A DNA stretch of 64,000 bases from assembly GCA_963719515.1 (NCBI GenBank), contig CAVRCJ010000010.1, forward strand, positions 288,001 through 352,000, written 5' to 3'. Position 1 is the stretch's first letter; each line of letters opens with the position of its first letter. The translations under genes were made by a program, and so were the position numbers. The notes below the pieces were generated by a model. That model was not told the DNA's origin, made no database searches, and saw only the letters and a list, made by a program, of their open reading frames with translations. Below are positions 10,648 to 61,137 of this stretch, piece after piece. This stretch comes from an uncultured cyanobacterium. Its GTDB lineage: Bacteria > Cyanobacteriota > Cyanobacteriia > CAKZMO01.

Positions 10648-11676
10648 TTGACGCCTCAGGCGGACCTCATTCCCCAAGGCAGAGTCTACCCCCGAAATTC
10701 AGTGGTGAACGGCATGGAGCGAAATCACAACGTCCAAACGCTTTGGCGCAGCGCTGTGCGCATGGCTCGGTTTGCGCGCTTCTCCCAACCCACCCATCCC
10801 CTACCCGCCTGGTGCTTTTGGTCTGTCGCGGCCAATTTGGCGGGCGCGGGGCTCTTGGGGGGGGTGCTGATTTACGGGCAGATTCGCGCCGCTGCCTCGG
10901 CTGATCACGCTGCTAGCGCTAGCGCTGAGGCGGCTAGGCCCTCTGCACCGCACCCCGGTCGTTTAGCAACGTTTTCCCTCGGCGACGGGCAAGCCGCTGC
11001 CTCCAAGACATCCCTAGCGCCCCCAACCTCACTTGAGATTGGTCCTCGGCACAAGCTCGACTATCAAGACTGGCTAACCCTACTGGAGCAGGAGGCGATC
11101 GCGGTTAGCGAGCGATCGCCCGATCGGCTCACCGTTTTGCTGGGCGATTCCATCAGCCTGTGGTTTCCCCCCCACTTGCTCCCCCCTGAGCGCAGCTGGC
11201 TCAATCAGGGGATTTCAGGGGAGGTATCGTCGGGTCTGCTCAAGCGCCTAGACCTGATTGACCAGACCGAGCCTGAGACCGTCTTGGTGATGGTAGGCAT
11301 CAACGATTTGATTCGAGACGTCAGCTCCCAGACGCTGCTGGCCAACTACCAGCTGATTCTAGAAGAGCTGGTAGAGCATCATCCCAAGGCACAGCTTGTG
11401 GTGCAGTCGGTCTTGCCCCACGCTGGGGAAGCGGCCACCTGGGAAGGGGCAGCCCGGCTGCAGGAGATTCCCAACGCCGAAATCCGGGACATTAACGATG
11501 ACCTGAAGGCGATCGCCCTCAAGCACGACGCCCAGTACCTGGACCTCTACTCGCTGTTTAGCGACGGCGAAGGAAACCTGCGCTCGGAACTAACGACCGA
11601 CGGGCTGCACCTCAATACAAGCGGCTACCTGGTTTGGGCGACCGCGCTGCAGGTGTATCCCTTCGAAGATCGGTGA
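10648..11676 (+). CDS. SGNH/GDSL hydrolase (start uncertain)
   Basis: GDSI, NQGISG, GIND, DGLH blocks; N-terminal TM. Confidence 0.88.
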   Translation: MTPQADLIPQGRVYPRNSVVNGMERNHNVQTLWRSAVRMARFARFSQPTHPLPAWCFWSVAANLAGAGLLGGVLIYGQIRAAASADHAASASAEAARPSAPHPGRLATFSLGDGQAAASKTSLAPPTSLEIGPRHKLDYQDWLTLLEQEAIAVSERSPDRLTVLLGDSISLWFPPHLLPPERSWLNQGISGEVSSGLLKRLDLIDQTEPETVLVMVGINDLIRDVSSQTLLANYQLILEELVEHHPKAQLVVQSVLPHAGEAATWEGAARLQEIPNAEIRDINDDLKAIALKHDAQYLDLYSLFSDGEGNLRSELTTDGLHLNTSGYLVWATALQVYPFEDR

Positions 11677-12064
11677 CATCCTCCCGACGCTGACAGCAAG
11701 CTGTACAGCGCGGGCTTCCTCAGTGACTCCCAGCTATTGCCGAGACATATCCTGAGATAGGTTTATACTCCGCCTGATGCCCCACGGCAGAGTTTTGAAT
11801 TTTCATCTCCGCGAGGGAGGATACGCACTATGTGTCGCAGATACATTTGCAAACTGAGGAACGGGTGACTTGCAGCTTTCGCCTACGGGCCCGTCACACT
11901 CTTTGCGGGGTGTATCACCTTGCTATCTCTATCATACCAACTGCTAGCCTCAGCGCTGAGCGCACTATCCGCTGTGCATCATTTTGCGGGCGCACTTCGG
12001 CTAGCGCGACTCTCATCCCGACGCTCACCCTAACGGGTAGAGCGCGGGGCTTCCTGTCTAGTAG
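11673..12064 (-). mobile_element. Non-autonomous IS200/IS605 derivative, family A, copy 1 (392 bp)
   Basis: Ends match the IS at 24171-25970 (CCCGACGCT..AGCGCGGG hairpins, right end TCAC), preceded on - strand by TTTAG (12065-12069); near-identical to 13662-14053. Confidence 0.93.
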
Positions 12065-12123
12065 CTAAACTGGCATGGACTTTGCTAGGCTAAACGCAAT
12101 AGCGCGTACGCCAACGGCCCAGC

Positions 12124-13317
12124 ATGGATACCAAAACCTTCAAGCGATCGCTCAATCAGTCTGAGAACTATCACCGCAAAGGATTCGGCCACGAGGACGA
12201 CGTCTCGGGGATGATGGATAGCGAGTACCAAAGCTCTTTGATCCAAACCATTCGCGATCGCAACTACACCCTAACCCAGGGGGACGTTACGATTCACCTA
12301 GCCGAAGCGTTTGGGTTCTGCTGGGGCGTAGAGCGGGCGGTAGCGATGGCCTACGAGACGCGGCAGCATTTCCCTACTGAGCGCCTGTGGATCACCAACG
12401 AGATTATTCACAACCCCTCAGTGAATCAGCGGCTGCGGGAAATGCAGGTGCAGTTTGTGCCGATAGAGAGCGGCGTCAAGGACTTTTCCCCCATCGGGGC
12501 GGGAGACGTGGTGATTCTGCCTGCGTTTGGGGCCAGCGTTCAGGAGATGCAGACCCTCAACGACCGGGGCTGTGTCATTGTCGATACGACCTGTCCTTGG
12601 GTTTCTAAGGTGTGGAACTCGGTGGAAAAGCACAAGAAAAAAGAGTTCACCTCCATCATCCACGGCAAATATAAGCATGAGGAGACCGTAGCCACCAGCT
12701 CCTTTGCCGGGATCTACCTGGTGGTGCTGAACCTGGAAGAAGCCGAGTACGTGGCCCGCTATATCCTTGAAGGAGGCGATCGCGCGGAATTCCTAGAGAA
12801 GTTCCGCCACGCTCACTCCGATGGCTTTGACCCCGATCAGGATCTAAAGCGCGTGGGGGTGGCCAACCAAACCACCATGCTCAAAGGGGAGACGGAGCGC
12901 ATCGGCAAGCTGTTTGAGCACACCATGCTGACGAAGTATGGCCCTGCCGAGCTCATGGACCACTTCATGAGCTTCAACACCATCTGTGATGCCACCCAAG
13001 AGCGTCAAGATGCCATGTACCAGCTCATCGACCATCAGCTAGACCTGATGGTGGTCATCGGCGGCTACAACTCTTCTAACACCACCCACCTGCAGGAGAT
13101 TGCTGTGGATCGGGACATCCCGTCCTACCATATCGATAGCGCCGAGCGTATTGGTCCCGGTAACCAAGTCGAGCACAAACCTTTAGATGCGCCCCTCGAC
13201 CTGAAAACAGACTGGCTTCCCGAAGGTGCGATTACCGTTGGCGTCACCTCTGGGGCTTCGACGCCAGACCGCGTCGTCTCGGACGCTATTGAGAAAATCT
13301 TTGCGCTCAAAGCCTGA
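12124..13317 (+). CDS. ispH: 4-hydroxy-3-methylbut-2-enyl diphosphate reductase
   Basis: [39 protein letters not shown]. Confidence 0.97.
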
Positions 13318-13583
13318 TGCCGACCAAAAAGTCGAAATCGAAGCCCCTCACGGGCGACGCTCTGGTGAAAGAGGTCTGTCGCCGCATTCGCGTCGCCCGC
13401 TCCTACTGGGATGCCCACAATAATCGCGCCTGCCGAGGAGAACGAGAGAAAGCGCTGGCGCTCTATGAGCAGCTGACCCAAGCGCAAAAGGAAAAAGTGC
13501 CTCAGCAGCTACGCGTCTGGCTGCGCTACCGCAGCGAGAAGTACTTTGGGGAGCACCGCACGCCGCCCCATAAGTCACGCTGA
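13317..13583 (+). CDS. Small conserved cyanobacterial hypothetical protein
   Basis: TGATG coupling to ispH; basic 88-aa ORF. Confidence 0.7.
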   Translation: MPTKKSKSKPLTGDALVKEVCRRIRVARSYWDAHNNRACRGEREKALALYEQLTQAQKEKVPQQLRVWLRYRSEKYFGEHRTPPHKSR

Positions 13584-13661
13584 CGAACGCAATGCCCCCC
13601 CGCAGACAGCGCCAGCAGGGGGGCGATCGCCGTAAGCCTCGCGAACAGCTTACTAGACTGC

Positions 13662-14053
13662 GTGACATCCTCCCGACGCTGACAGCAAGCTGTACAGCGC
13701 GGGCTTCCTCAGTGACTCCCAGCTATTGCCGAGACATATCCTGAGATAGGTTTATACTCCGCCTGATGCCCCACGGCAGAGTTTTGAATTTTCATCTCCG
13801 CGAGGGAGGATACGCACTATGTGTCGCAGATACATTTGCAAACTGAGGAACGGGTGACTTGCAGCTTTCGCCTACGGGCCCGTCACACTCTTTGCGGGGT
13901 GTATCACCTTGCTATCTCTATCATACCAACTGCTAGCCTCAGCGCTGAGCGCACTATCCGCTGTGCATCATTTTGCGGGCGCACTTCGGCTAGCGCGACT
14001 CTCATCCCGACGCTCACCCTGACGGGTAGAGCGCGGGGCTTCCTGTCTAGTAG
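13662..14053 (-). mobile_element. Non-autonomous IS200/IS605 derivative, family A, copy 2 (392 bp)
   Basis: Direct repeat of 11673-12064 (one difference seen); target TTTAG at 14054-14058. Confidence 0.93.
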
Positions 14054-14785
14054 CTAAACCGTGAAGCTAAAGGCCATAAGCTCAGCTGAACTGGGGAAAA
14101 CGCCGCCATCAAACTGAGGCAGAGTGTCGAGCGGAACATCGATTTCAGGCCCCATTGCCGCTTCCGGCAGGCCTACGATAAAGATAGGGATTTCAGGCAG
14201 GGCACTCCCCTCGGTAAGTGGGTCAGTCGCCAAGGCGTCAGCAGCAAAGGGATCAATGGGGAGCAGTTCAGCTGGAATTTGGTAGACCGAGGCGATCGCT
14301 TCGCCTGCCACTGACGCCAGGACATCGACCACCAAATCGTAGTCCACGCCCACCGCAGGAATCTCTCCCGTCAGTGAGTCGACCACCGCCGTAATCACAA
14401 CGTCCCCGGTCATATCCTGCAGCCCAATGGCCAGGATGTTGGATACCTCCAAGGCAGGAGCTTCTAAAACAGCCTCGTCAGAGCCTTCGACTCGCTCTTC
14501 CGGAGTGCTCAGGGCTTCGAGAATAGCCAGCGTATCTGGGTCGGCAAATTCTCCGGTGACGTCTAGCTCGACGGGCAGCGTGCTGAATCCAAGCAAATCT
14601 ATTACGACGCTATTGACGACGCCCGCGTCTCGAAGCAGGTCCAAGGTAATAAACTTAACGGCCTCAAAGGAAATCTCAACAGTCGGCTCAACGAGCGGCG
14701 CTACCGGCAGGCTTGTCTCTGTAGGGACAACAGTTGCAGCAAATTGGCTTGCTACAGGTGAAGGGTTAGGGATGACAGCAGTCAT
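14054..14785 (-). CDS. Highly acidic hypothetical protein
   Basis: 243-aa ORF rich in D/E/V/P/A with almost no basic residues. Confidence 0.65.
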   Translation of the reverse strand: MTAVIPNPSPVASQFAATVVPTETSLPVAPLVEPTVEISFEAVKFITLDLLRDAGVVNSVVIDLLGFSTLPVELDVTGEFADPDTLAILEALSTPEERVEGSDEAVLEAPALEVSNILAIGLQDMTGDVVITAVVDSLTGEIPAVGVDYDLVVDVLASVAGEAIASVYQIPAELLPIDPFAADALATDPLTEGSALPEIPIFIVGLPEAAMGPEIDVPLDTLPQFDGGVFPSSAELMAFSFTV

Positions 14786-14945
14786 TTTAGAAGGCCTCTA
14801 GAGATTTGGCATAGCCAATGTCCTGATGCATCGGGATATTGGCGTGTCCTATCGCCTATTCAATGTCAGGCCCTGAGTCAAAAGCGTTGTTTGAAGCGAT
14901 AGGGGTAAACGCAGCACATAACAATCGCTGCTTTCTCTCTACTAC

Positions 14946-15016
14946 AAAAAAGACGCAAATCTGGAACATTTTGTGCCCTGTTGCGGTCACAGCGACATAA
15001 AACATTCCAGATTTGC
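14946..15016 (-). terminator. Long imperfect hairpin with T-run, likely terminator
   Basis: GCAAATCTGGAA (14955) / TTCCAGATTTGC (15005), A-run at 14946-14951, downstream of the 15056 gene. Confidence 0.55.
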
Positions 15017-15055
15017 AGTTAATGGCTTAAGGTGGCCGTCCAGCCACGACCGTGC

Positions 15056-16120
15056 CTACTCGCGAATCAAGGTCAAATCGGCCTCAGAAAAGGACTCTCC
15101 GTTGAGGCTGGCGCTGGCGCTGACTTGGTACTCCGTCCCTGAGCCAGCGGTGAAGCCCCGCAGCGGTACCTCAATCCGAAACTCTCCCTCCTCGTTAGCC
15201 ATCACGCGCTGGTCGAGGATAGTTTCCCCAAGGCTGACGAGCCCTAAGACAGAGCGACTCGTCTGCACAACGACGCTCACCTCAGCGCCGGGCCGAGTTT
15301 GCCCCACTAGGGTGATGCTGCCGCTTGACACGGACTCGCCGTCGCTGTGGCTGGTGAACTCAAGTCCAGCGGGAGCAACCGCTATGGGTTCTTCCGAAGA
15401 GGACGCAGGTGACTCTGTCGTGGTCTCAACCGCAGGGGTAGAGGCGGCTGCCGCTGAGGGGCTAAACTGCAGCGGCTGTTCCGCGACGCCGTAGACCGGC
15501 TGCCCCTGCTGCTGCAGCCGGCCCACAACAATGCCTTCTGTGACTGACCCGCTGGGCACTGTCAGCGTGGCCACATAGACGCCGGGAGACACTTCTTCGG
15601 TTGCTAGCACCTGCACCGTTTGTTCGTCATTGACCAGCAGCACCGAGGCGATCGCCCCCGGCGTGCCGGTCACGGTAGCGAGAAAGTTGTCGCCAGGGGC
15701 TACGGCGCTGCTAGCGTTGTGGGTCACTGAATCGATGGCGATCGCCTGCTGCAAGGGCTGAACCGCAAACTCCCAAGAGGACGCCCGCGTTTCCCCTGCA
15801 GCGCTGTTGTACTCCACACGCACCGTGACAGGACCGGGGGCAAAAGGCTGGCTAGGGCGATAGCTAAAGAAGGTGTCAGTGACGACGCTGCTGGCGGTAA
15901 CGTCTTCTCCATTGACCAGCAGTTTCACGGAGTTTGGCGCAACGGTTTGACCGTCAGTAGCCTCAAACCTACCGTAGATAGACGCGTCGGGGGAGATGTT
16001 GTCGCTGTCTACTGCCGGGTTAACGCCGACCACTTGCTGCGCGATGGCAGCAGAGGGAATGAGCAGCGGTAGGCCGGTGAGGCCAGCGGCAGCGATGAGC
16101 GATAGGGCAAGTCGTTTCAT
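15056..16120 (-). CDS. Secreted protein with Ig-like beta domains
   Basis: Signal peptide MKRLALSLIAAAGL...AIA-QQ; beta-rich repeats. Confidence 0.75.
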   Translation of the reverse strand: MKRLALSLIAAAGLTGLPLLIPSAAIAQQVVGVNPAVDSDNISPDASIYGRFEATDGQTVAPNSVKLLVNGEDVTASSVVTDTFFSYRPSQPFAPGPVTVRVEYNSAAGETRASSWEFAVQPLQQAIAIDSVTHNASSAVAPGDNFLATVTGTPGAIASVLLVNDEQTVQVLATEEVSPGVYVATLTVPSGSVTEGIVVGRLQQQGQPVYGVAEQPLQFSPSAAAASTPAVETTTESPASSSEEPIAVAPAGLEFTSHSDGESVSSGSITLVGQTRPGAEVSVVVQTSRSVLGLVSLGETILDQRVMANEEGEFRIEVPLRGFTAGSGTEYQVSASASLNGESFSEADLTLIRE

Positions 16121-16585
16121 AAAAGGTGAGGTAATGTCCGGAAATAGTTCAAACTTCAATTATATTATTCGGAGGTGTTTGTCAAGGCCCGGAAAGGGCC
16201 AGTTTTGGAGATAGGTCTTCTGATCTTGACTTTTCCCGAAAAAGTGGACACTTCCGAAAAGAGGCTAAATAAAGATGTTCACATGTAGCAAATGTCCTGA
16301 TGCTTAGGACATTTGCGCGCCTCATTACCTATGCTATGTAAAGTTTTGAGTCCACGACACTGTCCTCAGCAATATGGCCAAAGCTATAAATCAGCAGCGA
16401 CGTCGAGAATTTGCAGACTTTTTAGCCAGACCAGCAAGGACGTCCTGGCCTCAATAAGTGGGTTGTGGGCAGACTCTGTGCCTCAGTTCAAGATTGGCGC
16501 GCTTTTTCTCTAGGTGTCCTTAAAGGCAGGGTGAAACACCTTATTTGCCAACGGCACCACGGCGGGTTGAGAGCACAGCCTATCT

Positions 16586-16681
16586 AAACCTTTGGCCAAA
16601 GCCGCTTGTTAAAACCTTTGGCCAAAGCCGCTTGTTAAAACCTTTGGCCAAAGCCGCTTGTTAAAACCTTTGGCCAAAGCC
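16586..16681. repeat. 26-bp tandem repeat, about 3.7 copies
   Basis: AAACCTTTGGCCAAAGCCGCTTGTTA starting at 16586, 16612, 16638 and a partial copy at 16664. Confidence 0.95.
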
Positions 16682-18514: not shown

Positions 18515-18933
18515 ATCGTTCGGGCCTGTTGCTCAGCGGGAGGGCGCTCTTGCCACCCAGACAGCAGTCCTTGAAGCTCACTCTGCAGCATCGTCAGCTC
18601 GTCAATTTGAACTTGAACCGCCGCCAGCTTCTCTACAAGATACTCCTTGACGTCGCCGCAGGGCAGCTGGCCCTGGTCATGCACCCCTAAAACTTGCCGC
18701 ACCTCGTCTAGGCTCAGACCAAGGGACTGGGCGCGTTTGATAAAGGATAAACGGTTGAGCACGGCAGGCGCAAACAGCCGGTAGCCCGAGGGCGATCGCG
18801 ATACGGTGGGGTTGAGCAGACCGATGTCTTCGTAGTAGCGAATCGTTTTAATCGGTAGCCCGGCCTCCTGGGCCACTTGGCCAATCTTGAGGCGGTGTTC
18901 GGTAGAGGGTTGAATCGATCGAGTCATGATCAA
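18493..18933 (-). CDS. MerR-family heavy-metal regulator
   Basis: KIGQVA..TIRYYEDIGLL..GYRLF, conserved Cys (PCG, ICP). Confidence 0.92.
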   Translation of the reverse strand: MIMTRSIQPSTEHRLKIGQVAQEAGLPIKTIRYYEDIGLLNPTVSRSPSGYRLFAPAVLNRLSFIKRAQSLGLSLDEVRQVLGVHDQGQLPCGDVKEYLVEKLAAVQVQIDELTMLQSELQGLLSGWQERPPAEQQARTICPNIQH

Positions 18934-18958
18934 TAGCTCGCAGCAGCAATACGGCCTG

Positions 18959-19235: not shown

Positions 19236-19320
<85 letters not shown>

Positions 19321-24112: not shown

Positions 24113-24216
24113 TGCCCATTTCCCTCGCTCCTACGCCGCTAGGGTACCCGGGATAGGAGAAGAGACAACTGTGACATCCTCCCGACGCTGATGCTACGCA
24201 TACAGCGCGGGCTTCC

Positions 24217-25413
24217 TCAGTGACTCCCAGCTACCGCTGAGACATTTCCTGAGAGATTAAGGGCTTGATGTCCCACAGCCCTATTCAATAGGTTGATAGC
24301 CGCGTTGTGGTCGCGACAGATCGTTAAGCCGCATGACGGGCAACTATGGACCCGATCGGCCAGCGTCTTTGGTACCCGCTCACCACAACCCGAGCAATCA
24401 ATGCTGGTTCCGCGTGGGTTCTCAGCGATGGTCATCTTTCCAGCTTTCGCGGCTTTGAAAGAGCCTATCTCCAAGAATGTACCCCATGCGGCATCAGCGA
24501 TTGACTTTGCCAGTCTGGTTCGAGCAAGTCCTTTGATGTTGAGCTTTTCATGAGCGACAACATCGTACTTTGAGAACAGCCAATCCCACACCTTAGAAAA
24601 GAAATCACGACGCTGACGCGATATCTTTAGATGTAGTTTGGCGATGCGATTTACCTGCTTACGCCAGCGGTTAGAGCCCTTCTTCTGTCTCGATAGCTGC
24701 CGCTGCAGCTTGGATAGCTGCCGCTCTGAGCGTCGAAAGAACTGAGGGATAGGAACGCTCTCACCGTCACTGGTAACCAAGAAATCCTTCAGCCCAACGT
24801 CAACACCGACAGACTTAGCCCTATCGACATCCGGAGTAAGCATCGGAACGGCATTGTTTTCCAGTAACAGGCTCACATACCAACCATCTGCTTTGCGAGT
24901 CACCTTGGCCGTTTTGACAGTAAACCCATCAGGTATCGGGCGATGAAGGATTAGCTTCACCTGGCCAATCTTAGGCAGGGTAATACGACTTCCATCGATG
25001 CAGTCAGGTTTCATCTGCGGGAACGTGAACGTCCTGTAGCGCCCCGCGCCTTTGAACCGAGGCTTGCCGCTACGCTTACCATTCCTATCACCTTTGATGA
25101 AACGCTCGAACGTCTGCTTTACCTGCTTCGTCACCTCCTGAAGCGCTTGTGAATGCAAATCTTTGTACCAGGGCCGCTCTCGCTTGAGAGGTACTAGGCT
25201 AGCCTTCTGGCTGTAGTAATTAGGATTATCTTTGAGTGGCGCAAGGCTACAGGTGAGTGGGCAGGCGTTGACCGAACAGCGGTTCATCTCCCACCAGTCG
25301 AAGCGCTCAGCCAGCAACCAGTTGTACTGTGCCCGAAGCATATCTAGCCATCGGGTCATGGTAACCGTTTGCTCAGCCGTTGGGCGTAACCTGTACTGAT
25401 GGGTGATTTTCAC
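24217..25413 (-). CDS. tnpB: RNA-guided endonuclease TnpB
   Basis: YRLRPT HTH, RuvC GVDVG / HEKL / RDHNAA, zinc finger CSGC..CPSC. Confidence 0.96.
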   Translation of the reverse strand: MKITHQYRLRPTAEQTVTMTRWLDMLRAQYNWLLAERFDWWEMNRCSVNACPLTCSLAPLKDNPNYYSQKASLVPLKRERPWYKDLHSQALQEVTKQVKQTFERFIKGDRNGKRSGKPRFKGAGRYRTFTFPQMKPDCIDGSRITLPKIGQVKLILHRPIPDGFTVKTAKVTRKADGWYVSLLLENNAVPMLTPDVDRAKSVGVDVGLKDFLVTSDGESVPIPQFFRRSERQLSKLQRQLSRQKKGSNRWRKQVNRIAKLHLKISRQRRDFFSKVWDWLFSKYDVVAHEKLNIKGLARTRLAKSIADAAWGTFLEIGSFKAAKAGKMTIAENPRGTSIDCSGCGERVPKTLADRVHSCPSCGLTICRDHNAAINLLNRAVGHQALNLSGNVSAVAGSH

Positions 25414-25466
25414 TACTGCGTCTAAGTCAGTGATATCATAATAGCATACGCTGATTTCGATGCACC

Positions 25467-25946
25467 ATGAAAAATGACTTTGTTTCTAGCGGTCGCTCAA
25501 TTTCAGACCTTAAGGCCCATCTGGTTTTGACGACGAAATACTGCCGTAAGGTTTTTACCGAAGAAATGATACGGCGACTTCTAGAGGTTGTCGGAGATCT
25601 GTGCGAGAAGTGGGACTGCAAGATGATTGAGTTCAACGGAGAGGCCGACCACGTTCATCTGCTGTTTCAGTATTATCCGCAGATGGAGCTACCCAAGTTC
25701 GTCAGTAATTTGAAGTCTGTTTCCAGCCGCAGGCTGAGGTCGGAGTTCGCGGAGCGAGTAGACCAGTTCTACTGGAAGTCTGTTCTCTGGAACGAATCGT
25801 ACTTTATCGCCAGTTGTGGCGGGGTCACTGTCTCTGTGCTGAAACGGTACATTGAGCAGCAGGACGCCCCGGAGATGGGTGCTTCTGGGGCATTGAACCC
25901 CGTCAGCACCCGCGACTCTCATCCCGACGCTCACCCTAGCGGGTAG
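25467..25946 (+). CDS. tnpA: Y1 (HUH) transposase TnpA
   Basis: HLVLTTKY, DHVHLL, LKSVSSR, LWNESYF, RYIEQQ. Confidence 0.96.
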   Translation: MKNDFVSSGRSISDLKAHLVLTTKYCRKVFTEEMIRRLLEVVGDLCEKWDCKMIEFNGEADHVHLLFQYYPQMELPKFVSNLKSVSSRRLRSEFAERVDQFYWKSVLWNESYFIASCGGVTVSVLKRYIEQQDAPEMGASGALNPVSTRDSHPDAHPSG

Positions 25947-25978
25947 ATCGCGGGGCTTCCCGTCTAGCAGCTAAAGCG

Positions 25979-36553: not shown

Positions 36554-36664
36554 AAACAGAAATGGTGCGATGGAATCTGCGCTCCGCTGCGCGATCGCAC
36601 TTTGATGACAATCATGGGTTGCGAATGGCGATGAAGCCATGCCTCCGCTACGCGATCGCTGCTC

Positions 36665-37086
36665 GTGACATACTCCCGACGCTCATTCTACGAATAGAGC
36701 GCGGGCTTCTTGGCTCGCGCACCACAAATGAATGGGTGCCGCACAAGAAAGTTTCCTGCTTCTCCTGGTCTTGTCTAGCCAAACAGCAAGCTGTATGACC
36801 CCGATTAGATCCCATCCACAGGCAATTTATTTTACGTCCAGGCAATGACCAACCCCAGACAGACTACTTTTTTGAGCTTCCTTTCTTCCAAAAACTGTGT
36901 CGCGTCACCGTTATGTTTTCTATGGGTGATATTTTTCTCGACGAACACTTTGGAGGGGTAGAAAACCTTGCAAACAGTTGATATGTATACATTCTAGCAT
37001 GAATAAGGATTGTTCGCCTTTGGCTCACGAGCCTTTCATCCCGACGCTGATGCTGCGCATACAGCGCGGGACTTCCCGTCTAAGAG
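36665..37086 (-). mobile_element. Non-autonomous IS200/IS605 derivative, family B, copy 1 (422 bp)
   Basis: Ends match 59740-61137; target TTTAA at 37087-37091; inverted near-copy of 44124-44545. Confidence 0.93.
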
Positions 37087-44123: not shown

Positions 44124-44545
44124 CTTTTAGACGGGAAGTCCCGCGCTGTATGCGCAGCATCAGCGTCGGGATGAAAGGCGCGTGAGCCAAAGGCGAACAA
44201 TCCTTATTCATGCTAGAATGTATACATATCAACTGTTTGCAAGGTTTTCCACCCCTCCAAAGTGTTCGTCGAGAAAAATATCACCCATAGAAAACGTAAC
44301 GGTGACGCGACACAGTTTTTGGAAGAAAGGAAGCTCAAAAAAGTAGTCTGTCTGGGGTTGGTCATTGCCTGGACGTAAAATAAATTGCCTGTGGATGGGA
44401 TCTAATCGGGGTCATACAGCTTGCTGTTTGGCTAGACAAGACCAGGAGAAGCAGGAAACTTTCTTGTGCGGTACCCATTCATTTGTGGTGCGCGAGCCAA
44501 GAAGCCCGCGCTCTATTCGTAGAATGAGCGTCGGGAGTATGTCAC
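44124..44545 (+). mobile_element. Non-autonomous IS200/IS605 derivative, family B, copy 2 (422 bp)
   Basis: TTTAA at 44119-44123, ends in TCAC; about 5 differences seen from copy 1. Confidence 0.93.
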
Positions 44546-45175
44546 GTTTTCTTCTCTTAGCGATCGCGCAAACCGCTTCAAAATTTGTAGCACCACCGCC
44601 AAGTCATTGCGGCTATCGATGGCAAACAGATCCGACTGCCCGTAGTACGGCTGCGGCTGAGCTACCAGCTTGAGAAAGCGAAACGTAGACCCATTGCTCA
44701 CAAACCCAAACGTCGGCTGCGAACCATTGGGGCTACCCAGCATATAGGCCAGCGCTTGCGGAATCGCCGTTTCCACAGAATACGCCACCTGCTTCGACTC
44801 AATCACCGTTACCCAAAAGGGTGGAGAAAACGCTAGCAAATCAATTCGCCCCCGAACCACCAATCCCTCATCCTCAGAGGCGATCGCCACCTCTTTTTCA
44901 GCCGCTAGATAGAAGGGCGGTTGGTAGAAGGTGGCTAGCCTTAGCAGCGGCGACAGCACCACCATCTTCACCATCGGCTCCAGCATCGAATACTGCGATA
45001 GGTGGCGATACTCTGCCTTCACCTCAGCGATCGCCTGCTGCTCTGCTACCGTTAATTCGGGTAAGTCCGTTTGCCACTCGGGGAAAAACTGCTCGTCGTC
45101 GCTGCGCGTGAGGCCAAAGCTGTCCTGCAAATCGGGCAGCGTTATCTGACTAGCGGGAATTGCTTGAACCATCAC
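44513..45175 (-). CDS. PD-(D/E)XK / HsdR-N-like small nuclease-fold protein; C-terminus altered by the IS derivative
   Basis: RGRIDLL..VIESKQ..IPQALAYML..FVSNGS.FRFLKL. Confidence 0.75.
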   Translation of the reverse strand: MMVQAIPASQITLPDLQDSFGLTRSDDEQFFPEWQTDLPELTVAEQQAIAEVKAEYRHLSQYSMLEPMVKMVVLSPLLRLATFYQPPFYLAAEKEVAIASEDEGLVVRGRIDLLAFSPPFWVTVIESKQVAYSVETAIPQALAYMLGSPNGSQPTFGFVSNGSTFRFLKLVAQPQPYYGQSDLFAIDSRNDLAVVLQILKRFARSLREENVTYSRRSFYE

Positions 45176-50619: not shown

Positions 50620-51027
50620 GTGAATACTCCCTATGCGAACCGTCTTGACCTTGAATCCATTAGGGATAGGGCGGTGCAGAACGATGCGCATCGTGCCCAG
50701 CTTAAGCAACTTGATTTGGCTACCCGTCACCGGGTTTTCCTTGAACTGCGGAAAGAGGAACGAGCGGTACTGCCCAAACTTTTTGAAGCGCGGAAAACCA
50801 TGACCTCTCTCCTTCCTCGCAGCAAATGCTGCCTCTACCCTGCGAATAGGCTCTTGAAGCACCTGAGACTGCACGTCCTTCAGGTGAGGAAATATCTTCT
50901 TAGCCGCAGTCAGCGCATTTTGCTGCTTGTAGTAGTGCGCCGCTCCTTAATTGTTCGCCTACGGCTCACGCGCCCTTCATCCCGACGCTGATGCTGCGCA
51001 TACAGCGCGGGACTTCCCGTCTAATAG
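50620..51027 (-). mobile_element. Doubly deleted family-B tnpB element
   Basis: Left end with TTTAA (51028-51032), internal tnpB fragment, only the last 12 bp of the right end (GGGAGTATTCAC). Confidence 0.9.
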
Positions 51028-51033
51028 TTAAAG

Positions 51034-52699: not shown

Positions 52700-52754
52700 T
52701 CCTGGCTCATTCTCACGTAGACTGCTAGCCTTCTAAAACACCATTTAGATCACT

Positions 52755-53144: not shown

Positions 53145-53315
53145 TTGGCGATCGCTTCTAAGACGTTATCAATACTTTGCTTAGCGGCCCGCTCGCTAAA
53201 CGCCAGTGGGTCACCACAGCGTACGCAGGCCGCCTTCCAAGACGTTTCTGAACCGCCCAGAGCGCTACCCTAGAGGAGTGAAGCTCGCCGCTTCAAACGC
53301 AGTTCAACGCCGGTA

Positions 53316-55205: not shown

Positions 55206-55301
55206 GAGCTAGCAGCCTGAAGAAAGTTAATTCGACAGGCAGTTCTCTTTGCTGAACCTCCCTTGCGCTGTCCCGTAGTGGCTAAATTCTCAACTCTCCC
55301 T

Positions 55302-55976
55302 ATGACTCCCTCCAGCAAGCAGTGGACAGTCTGGGCGCTGCTGCTCAGCCTCACGGGCTGCATCAGTCCTCAGCCCAGCTCGAACCCATCTGAACCCTCC
55401 CCTACTCAAAGCGAAGCGGCCCGGCCAGAACCAGGGCGCCCGGCGCCGATCGCCCAAACCGACGGTCAAACCGACGCCGATATCTGGTCCCAGCTTCAGG
55501 AAGCCGATACCCACTACTACGTGCTGATGCGCCATGCGATCGCCCCTGGCACCGGCGATCCACCCAGCTTCGACCTACAGGACTGCTCCACACAGCGCAA
55601 CCTGTCAGAAGAAGGGCTGACCCAGGCCCGGCGCACCGGGGAGCTGTTTCGACAAAAGAACGTAGCGGCCGGGCAGGTCCTCTCTAGCGAATGGTGCCGC
55701 TGCCTTGACACCGCTACCCAGCTGGCTCTTGGTCCCGTAGAACCGTTCCCCACCCTAAACTCATTCTTCGAAAACCGTGCCCAGGGTCCAGAGCGTACCG
55801 AGCGTCTGCAAGCGTTCATGGCCGAGCATAAAGAGGCTCAGCAGGTGACGGTGATGGTGACCCACTTCGTCAATATTTCAGCGATTGCAGGAAGCGGCGT
55901 CGCTTCCGGGGAGATGGTGGTGATGCGATATGAGCAAAATCAGCTCCAAGTTGTGGGCCGAATCGAAGCGCAATAA
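55302..55976 (+). CDS. Histidine phosphatase family lipoprotein
   Basis: Lipobox LTGC, RHA motif, SSEWCRC, VTH. Confidence 0.85.
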   Translation: MTPSSKQWTVWALLLSLTGCISPQPSSNPSEPSPTQSEAARPEPGRPAPIAQTDGQTDADIWSQLQEADTHYYVLMRHAIAPGTGDPPSFDLQDCSTQRNLSEEGLTQARRTGELFRQKNVAAGQVLSSEWCRCLDTATQLALGPVEPFPTLNSFFENRAQGPERTERLQAFMAEHKEAQQVTVMVTHFVNISAIAGSGVASGEMVVMRYEQNQLQVVGRIEAQ

Positions 55977-55990
55977 GGCTTAATTAAAGA

Positions 55991-56063
55991 AGCTGGTGAC
56001 AAGATTCGAACTTGCGACCGGCTGATTACAAATCAGCTGCTCTACCAACTGAGCTACACCAGC
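55991..56063 (-). tRNA. trnT: tRNA-Thr(TGT)
   Basis: GCTGGTG/CACCAGC acceptor, GCTGA-TTTGTAA-TCAGC, GTTCGAAT. Confidence 0.97.
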
Positions 56064-56290
56064 AACAGGGATTCAATATAGCAGATTTCCCGTCCGCCTA
56101 GCCAATATTTTCAGCGCCCCGTAAACGGTGGCCTAGCGCAGCCCCCCTCCGAACCGCCGCCAATTCGCTACCCTAAATACTAGAGGTTCTGTATGATGAT
56201 GCGTTAGATTATGGTGCGGTGGGCTTACGCACAGTGCACCCTGCGTCTCTATATTGCCGCTTTCACTACTTTGTTTGGTTCTCAAAATTC

Positions 56291-57118
56291 ATGATTAACC
56301 CGACGCTCAGCGCCCCCCCCACTCAAAAGCTGAACCAGCTGCGATCGCTCTTCTCCGAGATGCAGCAGGCGCTGATTGCCTACTCAGGCGGCGTCGACAG
56401 CGCCCTAGTGGCGAAAGTGGCCTACGACGTGCTGGGCGATCGCGCTTTGGCCGTCACCGCCGACTCCCCCTCTCTGCTGCCCGAAGACCTAGAAGCCGCC
56501 CGCCAGCAGGCAGAGTTCGTTGGCATTCGCCACGAAATCGTCCACACCTACGAACTCGACAACCCCAACTACACCTCTAATCCCGTCAACCGCTGCTACT
56601 TTTGCAAAAGCGAGCTGCACGACACCCTCAAGCCTTTGGCCCTAGAGCGGGGTTATCCCTACGTGGTGGACGGCGTCAACGCCGATGACCTGCAGGACTA
56701 CCGGCCCGGCATTCAGGCAGCCAAAGAGCGAGGCGCGCGATCGCCTCTAGCGGAGGTGGGTATCACAAAGCTAGAGGTGCGGCAGATTTCGCGACAGCTG
56801 GGACTTGACTGGTGGGATAAGCCCTCCCAGCCTTGCCTCAGCTCCCGGTTCCCCTATGGCGAATCCATCACGGTAGACAAGCTGCGCCGGGTGGGGCAGG
56901 CAGAGCGCTACTTGAGAAACCTGGGGTACCGGGATCTGCGGGTGCGCTCGGATGGGGACACGGCCCGCATTGAGCTGCCGCCGGGGGAGATTACGCCCTT
57001 CGTGCTGAACGTAGACCGCGATGCCATGGTGGCAGCGTTTCAGGAAATGGGGTTTTTGTACGTCACCTTAGACCTAGAGGGCTACCGCAGCGGCAAGCTC
57101 AACCGGGTGCTAGCTTAG
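56291..57118 (+). CDS. larE: LarE-like PP-loop sulfur transferase
   Basis: AYSGGVDS, RCYFCK, DYRPG, PCLSSR, GYRSG. Confidence 0.85.
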   Translation: MINPTLSAPPTQKLNQLRSLFSEMQQALIAYSGGVDSALVAKVAYDVLGDRALAVTADSPSLLPEDLEAARQQAEFVGIRHEIVHTYELDNPNYTSNPVNRCYFCKSELHDTLKPLALERGYPYVVDGVNADDLQDYRPGIQAAKERGARSPLAEVGITKLEVRQISRQLGLDWWDKPSQPCLSSRFPYGESITVDKLRRVGQAERYLRNLGYRDLRVRSDGDTARIELPPGEITPFVLNVDRDAMVAAFQEMGFLYVTLDLEGYRSGKLNRVLA

Positions 57119-57178
57119 CCGTAGCGGCTGGGTAAACATCGGCAGATCTTAAAGACGCCCCGACGGGCGATCGCCAGC

Positions 57179-57994
57179 CTATAGCTCCTCAATAAGAATC
57201 GGACTTGAGACATGGCGTTGCGGCGCGCTGGCGTCTTCTACCGTAACGGCGATCGCCTTGATCCAGCGGCTGTCGCGGTAGACCGGCGGCAGAGGGATAG
57301 TTTCGCCTTCGCCCTCTGCCGTTTCGCCCTCTGCCGTAAACACGTAGGTGAGGATTGCGCCCTTCTCGTCTGTGGTGAACGGGGCGTCGGCCTGCAGCAC
57401 CGTCCACAGCGCATACACCTGACCCTCAGGAAGTGGGGGAAGTTCTGTCTCCAGCAGCGCCTTGAGGTTGGCGGCGTCAAGCGCTACTGTCACTGCGCCG
57501 TCTGCAGCGCTTCCTTCCGCCGGGTTGAGAGAAACCGTCAGAAAAGTCGCCTGCCCTTCGGTTTGCCTCTCGGCCTGTAGGGTCTGCAGCGATCGCCAGG
57601 TCAGGTAGTTGCTGAGGCTTAGCCCCACAATACATAGCGCCGCGATCGCCCCCAAATGTCTCCCCCAGCGGCCTCCCCAGCGGCGCGGTTCGGAGCGACC
57701 GTCACTAGACCATTCAAGGGAGCGGTTGGGCGGCGCAGGTCTAACCGTGGAGATAGATCTTGCCTGCGACGTCAGATGAGCGGCTTGGTGAGCATCCAGA
57801 AGTGACTCGCGTAAGCGACGGGGCGGCTGGACCTCCGCAGGGGCATAGGCCAGCTCAAACGCCTGCTGCATCTGCCTAACGTCTTGAGCGATCGCTGGAT
57901 CGGCCAGCATCTGCTCGATGGCAGCCGCTTCGTCTGGGCTCAAATCGCCCAAAACGTAGCCCGCGATTAATTCTTGCTGCTCTTTTCGAGACAT
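57179..57994 (-). CDS. RskA-type anti-sigma factor
   Basis: AGYVLGDL, single TM, YALW, IAVTVE; downstream of the ECF sigma. Confidence 0.85.
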   Translation of the reverse strand: MSRKEQQELIAGYVLGDLSPDEAAAIEQMLADPAIAQDVRQMQQAFELAYAPAEVQPPRRLRESLLDAHQAAHLTSQARSISTVRPAPPNRSLEWSSDGRSEPRRWGGRWGRHLGAIAALCIVGLSLSNYLTWRSLQTLQAERQTEGQATFLTVSLNPAEGSAADGAVTVALDAANLKALLETELPPLPEGQVYALWTVLQADAPFTTDEKGAILTYVFTAEGETAEGEGETIPLPPVYRDSRWIKAIAVTVEDASAPQRHVSSPILIEEL

Positions 57995-58045
57995 CGACCC
58001 AGTCACAGTGCCATCATCCCCCGTAAAAAATTGACCCAATGCCGC

Positions 58046-58630
58046 CTAAAGTTTGTTGGACTGCTGAATAACCTGGCGCAGGTTAAGCAAGCCGCGTCTG
58101 GCTCTGGACTTAACGGTGCCTACAGGAATATTGAGCTGTTCGGCGATCGCGGCTTGGGTAAGTCCGTCGTAGTAGATCATCTCTAGAACCTGGCGCTGAC
58201 TGCCCGATAGCGCGGCAAGCGCAGCCCGAACCTCCTGGGATCGCTCCTGCTGAAGTGCGGCGTCTGTAGGGTTGTCTGCTGCAGGTGGTGAGGCCCGCAT
58301 ATCGCCCTGGGATCGCCGCGACTGCTGCTCCCGCCGCCGCCGCGATCGCAACCGGTCTATGGCACGCGATCGCGTCAGAACCGCCAAAAACGTTCTGAGA
58401 GAGCCGCGCTGCGGATCATAGGACGAGCTCTCAGTCAGTTTAAGAAAAATATCCTGGGTGAGGTCTTCTGCTTCTTGAGCGCTACCCAAAACCTTGAGCG
58501 CAATACCGTAGACTAGACCCGCGTGGCGATCGTAGAGCAATCCTAAGGCATTGGTATCTCCCTGCGCGATCGCTGACCACAGGTGTCCGTCCGTTGGAGT
58601 CTCGTTAGGGTTAGATTTCCCAGAATCCAT
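58046..58630 (-). CDS. ECF sigma factor (SigK-like)
   Basis: AEDLTQDIF, RSRAIDRLR, GTVKSR. Confidence 0.93.
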   Translation of the reverse strand: MDSGKSNPNETPTDGHLWSAIAQGDTNALGLLYDRHAGLVYGIALKVLGSAQEAEDLTQDIFLKLTESSSYDPQRGSLRTFLAVLTRSRAIDRLRSRRRREQQSRRSQGDMRASPPAADNPTDAALQQERSQEVRAALAALSGSQRQVLEMIYYDGLTQAAIAEQLNIPVGTVKSRARRGLLNLRQVIQQSNKL

Positions 58631-58757
58631 AGATCGCTGGATACACAGATACCACGACCCATCTTACCCTCTGACAGCAGGCTCCGATAGAACGCTCTCC
58701 GTAAAAACTACTACAGGTCAATTCAGACGTCCATAGGTCGGCGATTCTAGCGGGCTG

Positions 58758-58865
58758 TTAGAGAAGAAATATCGCTCGCCACAGCAGCATTGTTAATAAG
58801 CTAGTCGCCATCAGGCATACAGACTCTAGCGGGACGTATCGCATGAATTTTTTTTCATCCTGCAT
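58758..58865 (-). CDS. Putative 35-aa membrane peptide
   Basis: SD AAGGAGGT 4 nt before ATG; MQDEKKFMRYVPLESVCLMATSLLTMLLWRAIFLL*. Confidence 0.6.
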   Translation of the reverse strand: MQDEKKFMRYVPLESVCLMATSLLTMLLWRAIFLL

Positions 58866-58964
58866 GGGCACCTCCTTTATCGTCACAACAGCAAGAACAC
58901 AACGAGCAGAAACACGGCAGCCAAGCAGCCTAAGGGATCGAACTCACGTCGAGTTCACTATAGA

Positions 58965-58990
58965 TACGCTGCTTACGGCAATTGGGATCC
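58965..58990 (-). promoter_or_regulatory. ECF-type promoter GGATCC-N16-CGTA (leftward)
   Basis: Same motif and spacing as 59077-59102. Confidence 0.65.
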
Positions 58991-59076
58991 ATTTAAGTTG
59001 AGATTACTTTTTGCAGGGAAAGGCATCTACAACAGCAGGTCGTTAGCTCTGTAGCAAACTAAAAAGAGCAGGCCTT

Positions 59077-59102
59077 GGATCCAAACTTGGAGTCTAAGCG
59101 TA
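59077..59102 (+). promoter_or_regulatory. ECF-type promoter GGATCC-N16-CGTA (toward the CHRD gene)
   Basis: 35 nt upstream of the CHRD ATG. Confidence 0.65.
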
Positions 59103-59137
59103 GTATTAAGTGAGTCCAAACATCGGGAAAGTATTTA

Positions 59138-59674
59138 ATGACAACGAAGCTCAACGGTCTTAAACTGGTGCTCGGCACCGTTGTTTTAGGCCTCGGAATT
59201 GCGCTGCCTCAAACCGCTAGAGCGGGTCACACAAACGTCATCCTCTCAACAGAGCTAGACGGCAGCGCCGAAGTTGCTGGCGATGGTGATACCAGCCAGC
59301 TAGTGGGAGATGCCACCGGCACGGGAGAAGCCTACGTTTTTGGCATTGACGGCGACGAGACTACGCTTTGCTACGTGCTCAACGTCTCTGGAATTCAGCA
59401 GGTGCCTGTGGGAAGCGGTATGGCAGCCCACATTCACGAGGGAGCAGCCGACGAGAATGGCCCCGTCGTTGCGGCTTTGGCTGGACCTGAAGACGGCAAT
59501 GCCGGTGACTGCCTGACTGAAGGCGAAGAGGGCAAGTTTCCTACAGGAGAAGCAGGAATTGTTCAGCGTATCTTGATGGATCCGGGGAGCTTTTACATCA
59601 ACGTGCACAATCCTCAGTTCCCCGATGGGGCTATTCGAGGACAGCTCTACAACGGCCAGAACCACACGCACTAG
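59138..59674 (+). CDS. Secreted CHRD-domain protein
   Basis: Signal peptide, AAHIHEG, FYINVH..PDGAIRGQL. Confidence 0.92.
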   Translation: MTTKLNGLKLVLGTVVLGLGIALPQTARAGHTNVILSTELDGSAEVAGDGDTSQLVGDATGTGEAYVFGIDGDETTLCYVLNVSGIQQVPVGSGMAAHIHEGAADENGPVVAALAGPEDGNAGDCLTEGEEGKFPTGEAGIVQRILMDPGSFYINVHNPQFPDGAIRGQLYNGQNHTH

Positions 59675-59699
59675 CCCTGTTCGACTGAATCTATGCACC

Positions 59700-59737
59700 A
59701 TCGCCACCAAGCCCATTTCGGCTTGGTGGCGATTTTT
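59700..59737 (+). terminator. Intrinsic terminator
   Basis: 14-bp stem ATCGCCACCAAGCC/GGCTTGGTGGCGAT followed by a T-run. Confidence 0.85.
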
Positions 59738-59739
59738 AA

Positions 59740-61137
59740 CTGGTAGACGGGAAGTCCCGCGCTGTATGCGCAGCATCAGCGTCGGGATGAGAGGCGCGTG
59801 AGCCGTAGGCGAGCGATTAAGGAGTGTCTCACTACTCCTTAAAAACGCTATAATCGAGGTATGTTGACCTTGAACTACTCCTACAGAATTTATCCGTCTG
59901 TTGAGCAGGAAGCCCGTATGGTCTGTTGGCTTGAGACCTGTCGCGGCGTCTACAACTATGCGCTGCGCGAACGCAAGGACTGGGTAAAGTCGAGAAGCTG
60001 TGCGGCTAATGCCTGCTCGCTTCAGTCGGAGTACGTCATGGCGGCGGACGCGCCATATCCTGACTACTACAAGCAGCAAAATGCGCTGACTGCGGCTAAG
60101 AAGGTATTTCCTCACCTGAAGGACGTGCAGTCTCAGGTGCTTCAAGAGCCTATTCGCAGGGTAGAGGCAGCATTTGCTGCGAGGAAGGAGAGAGGCCACG
60201 GTTTCCCGCGCTTCAAAAAGTTTGGGCAGTACCGCTCGTTCCTCTTTCCGCAGTTCAAGGAAAACCCGGTGACGGGTAGCCAAATCAAGTTGCCTAAGCT
60301 AGGCACGATGCGCATCGTTCTGCACCGCCCTATCCCAGAAGGGTTTGCGGTGAAAACGGTGCGCATCATCAAAAAGCATTCGGGGTGGTACGCTACCGCG
60401 AGTATTCAAGCTGATGTCAATGTTCCTGATGCCATCCCTGCTGGGGACAGCATTGGTATTGATGTCGGGCTTGAGTATTTCCTGTCCACTTCCAACGGTT
60501 TGCAGGTAGAGCGCCCGCGCTTTTTCGGTAAGCTGCAGCGCAAGCTTAAATTGCTGCAACGCAGGCTGAAGAATAAGCAGCGGCGCTCGAATAACCGCGC
60601 CAAGCTCATCGGAAGAATTGGACGGGTGCATGAGCAGATAGCCGCTTGCCGCCTTGACTGGCAGTTCAAGCTGGCCCACAAGCTTTGTGACCAGGCCCAG
60701 ATCATCTTCGTGGAAGACCTTGACTTTCGCATCATGGCGAAAGGGATGCTGGGTAAACACACACTCGATGCTGGCTTGGGGCAGTTCATAAACCAGGTCT
60801 TGCCATGGGTGTGCTTCAAGCGCGGCGTCTATTACGGCAAGGTTGACCCGTATGGCACCTCTCAGGAGTGCCCAGACTGCGGCGCTGTGGTCAAAAAATC
60901 GTTGGGCGATCGCGTTCATCGTTGTGGTGAATGCGGGTCGCTCAAGCCGAGAGATATTGCCGCTGCTCAAGTCATCAACGCCCGTGGAATTTCGGGTATT
61001 CAAATTGCCTGTGGAGTCGAGGTAGCGGGGATGTGGGAAACCATATCTAGCCAACTGGCCCAGAAGCAGGAAGCTCATCGGGTGACCGATGAAGCCCGCG
61101 CTCTATCGCATCAGCGATGAGCGTCGGGAGTATTCAC
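59740..61137 (+). mobile_element. IS1341-type element (tnpB only), family B
   Basis: TTTAA at 59735-59739, end hairpins, right end TCAC. Confidence 0.95.
59861..61120 (+). CDS. tnpB: RNA-guided endonuclease TnpB
   Basis: YRIYP, GIDVG / VEDL / RDIAAA RuvC, CPDC..CGEC; TATAAT at 59849 suggests a leaderless mRNA. Confidence 0.96.
   Translation: MLTLNYSYRIYPSVEQEARMVCWLETCRGVYNYALRERKDWVKSRSCAANACSLQSEYVMAADAPYPDYYKQQNALTAAKKVFPHLKDVQSQVLQEPIRRVEAAFAARKERGHGFPRFKKFGQYRSFLFPQFKENPVTGSQIKLPKLGTMRIVLHRPIPEGFAVKTVRIIKKHSGWYATASIQADVNVPDAIPAGDSIGIDVGLEYFLSTSNGLQVERPRFFGKLQRKLKLLQRRLKNKQRRSNNRAKLIGRIGRVHEQIAACRLDWQFKLAHKLCDQAQIIFVEDLDFRIMAKGMLGKHTLDAGLGQFINQVLPWVCFKRGVYYGKVDPYGTSQECPDCGAVVKKSLGDRVHRCGECGSLKPRDIAAAQVINARGISGIQIACGVEVAGMWETISSQLAQKQEAHRVTDEARALSHQR

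Follow-up and report, generated by a model that had tools for sequence, protein, structure and literature searches.

Seven IS200/IS605 elements in a 64-kb window

The 64-kb stretch of DNA analyzed here (the window; G000:C10:288001-352000) belongs to a 5.28-Mb, 21-contig assembly of an uncultured cyanobacterium and carries seven insertion sequences of the IS200/IS605 type, divided between two families, A and B (Table 1). A search of the window for the motif AAGYCCCGCG, after which the anatomy of the elements was read directly from the sequence, returned seven exact matches, three with AAGC and four with AAGT, and all seven were the left ends of elements. With up to one mismatch allowed, 18 matches were observed, compared to 13.8 expected by chance. 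On these numbers the motif alone is not significant, and it is the context of the sites that carries weight.

The left ends of family A start with CT.CTAGAC.GG, followed by AAGC and then by the hairpin CCCGCG...CG(T)CGGG, the foot of which includes a bulged T. In family B, AAGT stands in the place of AAGC, and TTTAA precedes each element. At both ends the hairpin is on the same strand, and there are no terminal inverted repeats, as in the IS200/IS605 family; the dinucleotide after the hairpin is AT at the left end and AG at the right end. Six elements have a hairpin at the right end, with GAAG before it and AG..(G)TCAC after it. As read from the sequence, the right-end cleavage site lies 9 to 10 nucleotides (nt) 3' of the hairpin foot and the left-end site 15 to 16 nt from the foot. 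In the seventh element (50620-51027), the left end and a 5' fragment of tnpB are joined to the last 12 nt, including TCAC. Because its right hairpin is gone, this copy is presumably immobile. The initial annotation of the window, made from the sequence alone, had described three A elements with AAGC after TTTAG and four B elements with AAGT after TTTAA; direct reading bore this out in all seven, and the GAAG and TCAC that it ascribed to intact right ends were found in six of six.

The 1,800-bp A element encodes both TnpA and TnpB, whereas TnpB is the sole gene of the 1,398-bp B element, and the short copies in the window contain no open reading frame of at least 100 amino acids (aa). TnpA matched the Pfam Y1_Tnp profile over positions 2 to 121 of 121 (E = 7.5e-41), with H62-V-H64 and Y128 present. 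Both TnpB proteins matched HTH_OrfB_IS605 (PF12323), OrfB_IS605 (PF01385), and Cas12f1-like_TNB (PF07282), and their RuvC D-E-D residues align to those of ISDra2 TnpB. Judged by these retained residues, both nucleases are predicted to be catalytically intact, as had been suggested.

Table 1. IS200/IS605 elements and their genes in the window (positions are those of the window)
Feature	Coordinates	Strand	Length	Left-end guide	Target	Remarks
Family A short element	11673..12064	-	392 bp	AAGC 12049-12052	TTTAG 12065-12069, outside element	No TnpA or TnpB; right end GAAG-hairpin-AGGATGTCAC
Family A short element	13662..14053	-	392 bp	AAGC 14038-14041	TTTAG 14054-14058	
Family A autonomous element	24171..25970	-	1800 bp	AAGC 25955-25958	TTTAG 25971-25975	Right end GAAG...TCAC
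tnpB of family A	24217..25413	-	398 aa			D205/E289/D368 present; residues 69-71 are QKA
tnpA, Y1 HUH transposase	25467..25946	+	159 aa			Pfam Y1_Tnp; divergent from tnpB
Family B short element	36665..37086	-	422 bp	AAGT 37071-37074	TTTAA 37087-37091	
Family B short element	44124..44545	+	422 bp	AAGT 44136-44139	TTTAA 44119-44123	Exact empty site in relative G004
Family B element with internal deletion	50620..51027	-	408 bp	AAGT 51012-51015	TTTAA 51028-51032	
Family B tnpB-only element	59740..61137	+	1398 bp	AAGT 59752-59755	TTTAA 59735-59739	Right end GAAG-hairpin-AGTATTCAC
tnpB of family B	59861..61120	+	419 aa			D201/E285/D365 present; residues 72-74 are QQN, aligned to ISDra2 Q54-T55-S56

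Guide and insertion site correspond across the genome

A scan of the whole genome for the hairpin gave 238 hits, which resolved into 112 left ends and 100 right ends, the remainder being unrelated. All 92 left ends with AAGC had the site TTAG, and 15 of the 16 with AAGT had TTAA, so that 107 of the 108 copies with either guide stand at their own site (Fisher P = 1.3e-18 for the table of AAGC/AAGT by TTAG/TTAA). The four other left ends carry CAGC, three of them at TTAG and one at CTAG. In contrast to the variable left end, right ends paired GAAG with TCAC in 99 of 100 cases, the remaining one having TCGC. The 20-nt left flanks were distinct in all 112 left ends (two lie at contig edges), and these therefore represent separate insertions. 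Since copies inherit their guide, the Fisher value speaks to which targets the families choose and should not be read as a count of 107 independent changes of guide. The initial annotation had staked its proposal in advance on this genome-wide correlation, which was found unbroken.

The base at -5, immediately before the tetranucleotide, was T 80 times, G 9 times, C 5 times, and A once at TTAG sites (n = 95; T background, 34%), and it was T at 14 of 15 TTAA sites (T background, 28%). T at -5 is thus preferred but not obligatory.

The pentamers are target DNA

Are TTTAG and TTTAA target DNA or the first bases of the elements? In relative G004, contig C382 holds an empty counterpart of the site of element 44124-44545, in which the left flank with TTTAA joins the right flank directly (...CTACTTTTTTAA followed by GTTTTCTTCTCTTAGCG), TTTTTAA standing immediately before the right flank. 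In addition, an 84%-identical paralogue of the flanks of one A element (C3:646799) and a 73%-identical paralogue of the flanks of one B element (C13:36204), both within this genome, each cross the junction ungapped. On the basis of these three empty sites, TTTAG and TTTAA are target DNA outside the element, insertion takes place 3' of them, the element ends in TCAC, and no duplication is made. The empty site of the first A element was not placed in relative G002, where the intergenic region is too diverged, and a 17-kb query turned up no closer relative. Beside the empty site in G004, about 800 bp of the relative's locus (L002, G004:C382, 377-1195) are absent from the window at 44563-44570, an unrelated indel.

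These sites bear directly on the explanation that each pentamer is simply the start of its element, in which case the correlation would merely reflect two element sequences. Across all copies, the pentamer is indeed no less conserved than the element. However, all three empty sites keep it without the element, and the base at -5 varies among copies, so that we regard this explanation as extremely improbable.

A second explanation is that TnpA inserts indiscriminately at TTA[A/G] and that only copies beside the transposon-adjacent motif (TAM) of a matching TnpB are retained by RNA-guided homing. TnpB homing after excision is established (Meers 2023, 10.1101/2023.03.14.532601), and the enrichment of T at -5 could be a TnpB preference. 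Such a retention bias, however, would have to leave not one copy at the wrong site in a set of 107 insertions, recent short copies that are nearly identical among them, and it does not explain the complementary change in the guide. We therefore consider it improbable, and targeting set by the guide is preferred. Experimental changes to the guide are reported to have redirected IS608 (Guynet 2009). The abstract of Morero 2018 also bears on such redirection.

Pairing follows the scheme of IS608

In IS608, C-3 pairs with G-35 and T-4 with A-34, and A-2 has no guide interaction (He 2011, PMC3201880). These pairs, as given in the accessible text of that paper, imply a rule in which guide positions 1, 2, and 4 pair with site positions 2, 1, and 4. 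All three pairs in this genome, AAGC/TTAG, AAGT/TTAA, and GAAG/TCAC, obey the rule, as the initial annotation had stated; the part that fails is position 1, in the CAGC sublineage described below.

Like the Helicobacter pylori element, those described here have a TnpA of the Y1 HUH type and hairpins that are subterminal and contain a bulged T. A guide of 4 nt stands on the 5' side of each hairpin, AT follows the left hairpin and AG the right one, and insertion occurs 3' of a tetranucleotide without duplication. In IS608, the bases after the hairpins (A and G at the right, A+42 and T+43 at the left) form base triples, and the right cleavage site is 10 nt 3' of the foot (He 2011, PMC3201880). 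The two systems differ in their pairs (here TTAG/AAGC or TTAA/AAGT with TCAC/GAAG; in IS608 TTAC/AAAG with TCAA/GAAT), in the distance of the left-end site from the foot (15 to 16 nt versus 19), and in guide position 3 of the left end (G versus A); in addition, tnpA here is divergent from tnpB. Overall, the architecture is very close to that of IS608, the pairing being read from the sequence and the chemistry presumed from the family. Among earlier work, Barabas 2008 is said to be a study of IS608.

Family B has its sister in family C, and one transposase may serve all families

A third family, C, lies outside the window, on contigs C3, C4, C5, C10, C11, C13, C15, and C16 of the same genome (for example, C10:526043 and C3:-468288). 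In its left end, TTAG is followed by CTAGTTCGTGA and then by AAGC. Short C copies measure 449 to 450 bp, and several further C copies carry tnpB. The two intact C TnpBs (C3:-468288 and C10:+892622) are ~91% identical to the B TnpB although C uses AAGC/TTAG, and for this reason the real sister pair is B and C, not A and B. The initial annotation had taken A and B for a natural one-base retargeting pair; this does not hold, since the two TnpBs share 37% identity and the loops of the left-end hairpins are not the same, which places A and B more than one mutational step apart. The single-base contrast is seen instead across genomes, where relatives L026 and L029 carry the B spacer CTATTAGACGGG with AAGC and follow TTTAG.

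Comparison of four intact B proteins with the two intact C proteins revealed 10 fixed differences, 7 of which cluster at residues 73 to 75 (QNA to KRS), 88, 96, 97, and 99. At the DNA level, B and C are 63 to 80% identical in the left end, 88 to 98% in codons 1 to 55, 63 to 78% in codons ~60 to 110, and mostly 80 to 100% in the rest, with local dips that include a C3-specific insertion. This profile therefore shows two separate diverged patches within otherwise near-identical elements.

Which transposase moves these families? No B or C copy contains tnpA. The A-type TnpA has three copies in the genome (98 to 100% identity by tblastn), all other TnpAs are at most 50% identical to it, the one inspected among them belonging to other hairpins, and it is the only TnpA found beside hairpins of the CCCGCG type. 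On this ground the most economical reading is that the A-type TnpA most likely mobilizes all families in trans. The hairpin feet are identical across A, B, and C, and the left-end hairpin of B differs from the right-end hairpin of A by one loop base. Short B and short C copies are 98 to 99% alike, which indicates recent movement.

The alternative is that B and C depend, or once depended, on another TnpA, now lost or missing from the assembly. Besides the absence of tnpA from every B and C copy, it draws on the presence of several other TnpA types in the genome, on an assembly in 21 contigs, and on relative G004, which has B-like left ends yet gave no A-type TnpA at E <= 1e-30 (the G004 assembly is 93% complete in 980 contigs). 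The shared feet, the near-identical B left and A right hairpins, and the recent movement of the short copies speak against it, as does the hairpin of the next-closest TnpA type, family E, which is different at the left end. We judge a separate transposase unlikely, and mobilization by the A-type TnpA is preferred. In 16 relatives searched for an A-type TnpA, no match exceeded 74% identity.

Family E is a second autonomous element of the IS605 type (C10:588450-590560 and C6:364580-366700), with a TnpA ~50% and a TnpB ~48% identical to those of A; its TnpA is the nearest other type. Its left hairpin is CCACCA...TGGTGG and its right end CCCCCG...CGGGGG-AGGATGTCAC; one copy has AAAG rather than GAAG before the right hairpin. 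With two copies only, the left end of E was not fitted to the guide rule.

Short copies carry an omegaRNA-like scaffold

The inventory comprised 94 complete elements; a further 18 left ends and 6 right ends had no partner. Short copies were the majority (72 of 94): 51 short A (391 to 393 bp), 5 short B, and 16 short C. The others were A with tnpB only (14 of 1,483 to 1,484 bp, plus one of 1,612 bp), A with tnpA and tnpB (2, the right end of the third copy being missed by the pattern), B with tnpB (3), C of 1,467 bp (1), and D (1). Family D is represented by two divergent copies (C1:-7530, reverse-complement coordinate 367396, and C4:-102357), one with AAGC after TTTAG and the other with AAGT after TCAG/CAGA.

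The 392-, 422-, and 449-bp elements have both a left and a right end without protein genes, as do palindrome-associated transposable elements (PATEs). To compare their 3' regions with those of tnpB elements, we used a covariance model (R1) of the last 140 nt of the tnpB elements of 24 relatives (alignment A3), none of them from this genome. The RNAalifold consensus behind R1 comprises the right-end hairpin only (13 pairs); compensatory changes in a stem just before GAAG were seen by eye in A3. R1 matched full-length B over the full model at 112.8 bits and both short B copies in the window at ~80 bits, the match spanning the whole model with a single insertion of 23 nt; in element 36665-37086 the match covers the 3' 171 nt. 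Short B therefore carries the omegaRNA-like scaffold of its clade. This scaffold aligns over ~200 nt with short C versus 58 nt with full-length B.

Short A has its final 86 nt in common with full-length A. Upstream of these, a stem-loop has the same loop (GUGGGNCAUCA) and a stem that is different yet paired, as judged by eye; when the sequences were folded singly, both showed the same arrangement of three hairpins. R1 scored 50.8 bits over the whole model in short A and 55 bits on the right end alone in full-length A; because the model is uninformative upstream of the A right end, the relation between satellite and parent in A is drawn from the 86 nt, the stem-loop, and the folds. The initial annotation had assigned to each TnpB its own set of satellites. 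This agrees with the shared 3' end and stem-loop of short A and with the clade scaffold of short B, but the short B scaffold is closer to short C than to full-length B. It is plausible that the short copies are guide-only satellites. Rfam at gathering thresholds found three tRNAs and no omegaRNA family in the window.

Two repeats were seen in passing. A tandem array at C11:113668-115510, of ~123-bp units each with CCCGCG...CGTCGGG, is among the hairpin hits that have no relation to the elements; it probably represents repetitive coding sequence. The octamer GCGATCGC occurs at many sites in the window (for example, at 36650-36657 and 44560-44567), like the HIP1 repeat of cyanobacteria.

TnpB residue 73 tracks the final base of the site

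In ISDra2, the TAM is also the TnpA target, and its -1 base is read by Y52 and S56 of the recognition (REC) domain, the -2 base by Q80, and the -3 base by K76 (Nakagawa 2023, PMC10097598). Can the B/C differences in TnpB be placed on these contacts? A profile (A2) of 16 homologues was aligned to solved chains, by way of chain 9yyg, which keeps ISDra2 numbering here. In this alignment, Y70 falls on ISDra2 Y52, Q72 on Q54, and residue 74 on S56, and Q95 falls on Q80 both by this route and in the direct alignment to ISDra2; because the direct alignment has a gap in this region, the register could be off by about one residue. The differences between B and C therefore fall at the positions expected to read the -1 base. 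The A TnpB, which also faces TTTAG, has QKA at the aligned positions, so that Lys73 is common to A and C. These data suggest that residues 73 and 74 changed with the guide base, Q-N going with a final A in the site and K-K/R with a final G.

Relatives were collected with A2 from reference genomes (80 loci) and metagenomes (80 loci). The N-terminal part of TnpB was alignable in 147 loci, of which the left end was parsed automatically in 85 and failed to parse in 62. Six of the parsed rows were wrong; four (L045, L096, L127, and L171) were corrected by hand and two (L112 and L143) were spurious and dropped, while L029 and L091 were read by hand and added, to give 85 loci in the final table. Some rows are duplicates (L035 and L105 are one record in two collections), and some genomes contribute multiple copies. 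Element boundaries in the relatives were set by analogy rather than from empty sites.

The fourth guide base was complementary to the fourth site base in 84 of 85 loci, covering T:A, C:G, A:T, and G:C, and in the same 84 loci residue 73 of TnpB followed the last base of the site. Gln went with a guide ending in T at TTAA (26 loci), Lys with a final C at TTAG (15 loci), Leu with a final A at TTAT (11 loci), and His with AAAG at TTAC (2 loci). A second clade (L037-L097) has a different left-end architecture, in which Ala accompanies AGTA at CTAT (20 loci) and Cys accompanies AGTG at CTAC (10 loci); its boundaries are set by the guide rule only. The TnpBs of this clade are 43 to 50% identical to that of B in the aligned N-terminal stretch and 54 to 61% over full-length matches.

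Trees of TnpB residues in 34 rows, from which four pseudogene or partial rows were left out, placed nine changes of guide class on the tree of residues 106 to 400 and two on that of residues 1 to 105, and the approximately unbiased (AU) test rejected a single AAGT clade (P = 2e-98). With 57 rows, the fourth guide base needed eight changes on the C-terminal tree and four on the N-terminal tree. It follows from this contrast that the left end and the TAM-reading patch have been reshuffled against the rest of TnpB. Residue 73 changed together with the guide in five of five independent pairs on well-supported branches, and in the 57-row set the independent pairs were concordant for T/Q (5/5), C/K (4/4), and A/L (1/1); no discordant combination was found.

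Because a conserved stretch lies between the two diverged patches in this genome, we infer that selection as well as linkage keeps the guide and the TAM patch together. Extending this, the left-end DNA guide and the residues with which TnpB reads the final base of the TAM may form one co-adapted specificity unit with a simple code, repeatedly exchanged among elements that are otherwise nearly identical; selection, beyond linkage, would hold TnpA targeting and TnpB homing in register. In the proposed code, a guide ending in T would go with a TAM ending in A and Gln73-Asn74, a final C with a final G and Lys73-Lys/Arg74, and a final A with a final T and Leu73; in the second clade, Ala would go with a final T and Cys with a final C. 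We put this forward tentatively, at a confidence a little short of even. A literature search, outside which subscription papers and supplements lay, found no report tying natural variation at the S56-equivalent site of TnpB to the DNA guide.

A model for guide-set targeting, and the evidence that weighs against it

Taken as a whole, the evidence makes it quite probable that these are IS608-like elements that move as single strands, with targets set by the guide, a TnpA acting in trans, and TnpB residues changed in step. TnpA would bind the subterminal hairpins, and the cleavage and target tetranucleotide would be found by base pairing with the four bases 5' of the hairpin rather than by protein contacts. 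At the left end, AAGC would pair with TTAG (families A and C) and AAGT with TTAA (family B); at the right end, GAAG would pair with TCAC in all families. Since the left-end pairs vary at guide base 4, this base would dictate the base with which the insertion site ends, and insertions of each family would be confined to positions 3' of the family's own site, with no duplication of the target. The three copies of the A-type TnpA would act on all families. The insertion site would double as the TAM that TnpB reads to recut the emptied donor site, and residues 73 and 74 would shift with the guide base so that the last TAM base continues to be read. The short copies would be PATE-like derivatives that keep both ends and the omegaRNA-like 3' scaffold.

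Several observations weigh against this model, in addition to the failure to find an A-type TnpA in G004. The four copies with CAGC (C11:+34717, C13:-79542, C13:-161496, and C10:+597008), a sublineage of family C, stand at TTAG or CTAG where the rule predicts TGAG. Two of the four share further markers, which means that the variant has transposed; having moved without the predicted change of target, it shows that guide position 1 is not decisive here. The AAGT copy of family D at TCAG/CAGA is the only AAGT exception in the genome. Among the relatives, L018, the single Gln locus outside the code, has AAGT after TTTAC. In both His loci the predicted stem begins 2 nt beyond the guide, which makes the register of the AAAG/TTAC relatives uncertain; the same offset is seen in two of the Leu loci. 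The sign test on the five independent pairs gave P = 0.0625, the best value that five pairs can reach, and the same after the metagenome loci were included. Finally, the guide and codon 73 of tnpB are ~330 bp apart, and part of their association could therefore be physical linkage.

Relation to known systems

A close parallel to the set of families described here is ISGst1-5 of Geobacillus stearothermophilus, whose families have similar ends with co-varying mutations in the TAM, the transposon-encoded motif (TEM), and the DNA guide (Meers 2023, 10.1101/2023.03.14.532601). In that work, one TnpA was predicted and tested to act on several ISGst families, ~50 tnpA-less copies were predicted to move in trans, and PATEs were described with omegaRNAs that need TnpB in trans. 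The cyanobacterial genome likewise has several families and many tnpA-less and PATE-like copies. It differs in its host, in having ~110 copies, and in a right-end pair that is constant while the left-end pair alone varies; unlike the PATEs of that study, the short copies here are the majority, and at least the B/C type matches the omegaRNA-region model over its full length. In the accessible text of Meers 2023, no connection to individual TnpB residues was seen. Since the pairing of IS608 and the co-variation in ISGst have been reported, the principle of guide and target is already published, and this genome is a very clean further example of it.

The TnpBs share with ISDra2 TnpB (Karvelis 2021; Nakagawa 2023, PMC10097598) the order of domains and the RuvC triad. 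In contrast, the TAM of ISDra2 is TTGAT, the identity of the B TnpB to it is low (phmmer E = 2e-26), and ~15 residues are inserted here before the TAM-reading helix. TnpB7 of a Sulfolobus islandicus IS605 element is closer in its target: its TAM is TTTAA, the transposon end is TTCAC, and the -5 T is dispensable for cleavage (NTTAA) (PMC11043419), which resembles the nonobligatory -5 T here. That system is archaeal, and the accessible text of the paper describes no TTTAG sister family; it restates a proposal that TnpA and TnpB co-evolved to read one site.

This natural data set is unusually clean: a single genome provides 112 independent insertions, three of its families have identical hairpin feet, and the left-end pair varies while the right-end pair stays constant. 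It offers a ready-made system for the study of guide-directed targeting and of mobilization in trans. The more useful lead is the switch of guide and TnpB residue across clades, against the phylogeny of the rest of the protein. It bears on how transposase targeting and nuclease homing stay coupled, and it suggests substitutions that may change the TAM. If the guide and the TAM-reading residues do form one co-adapted unit, the TAM of a TnpB would be switchable in a predictable way by one or two residues together with one guide base.

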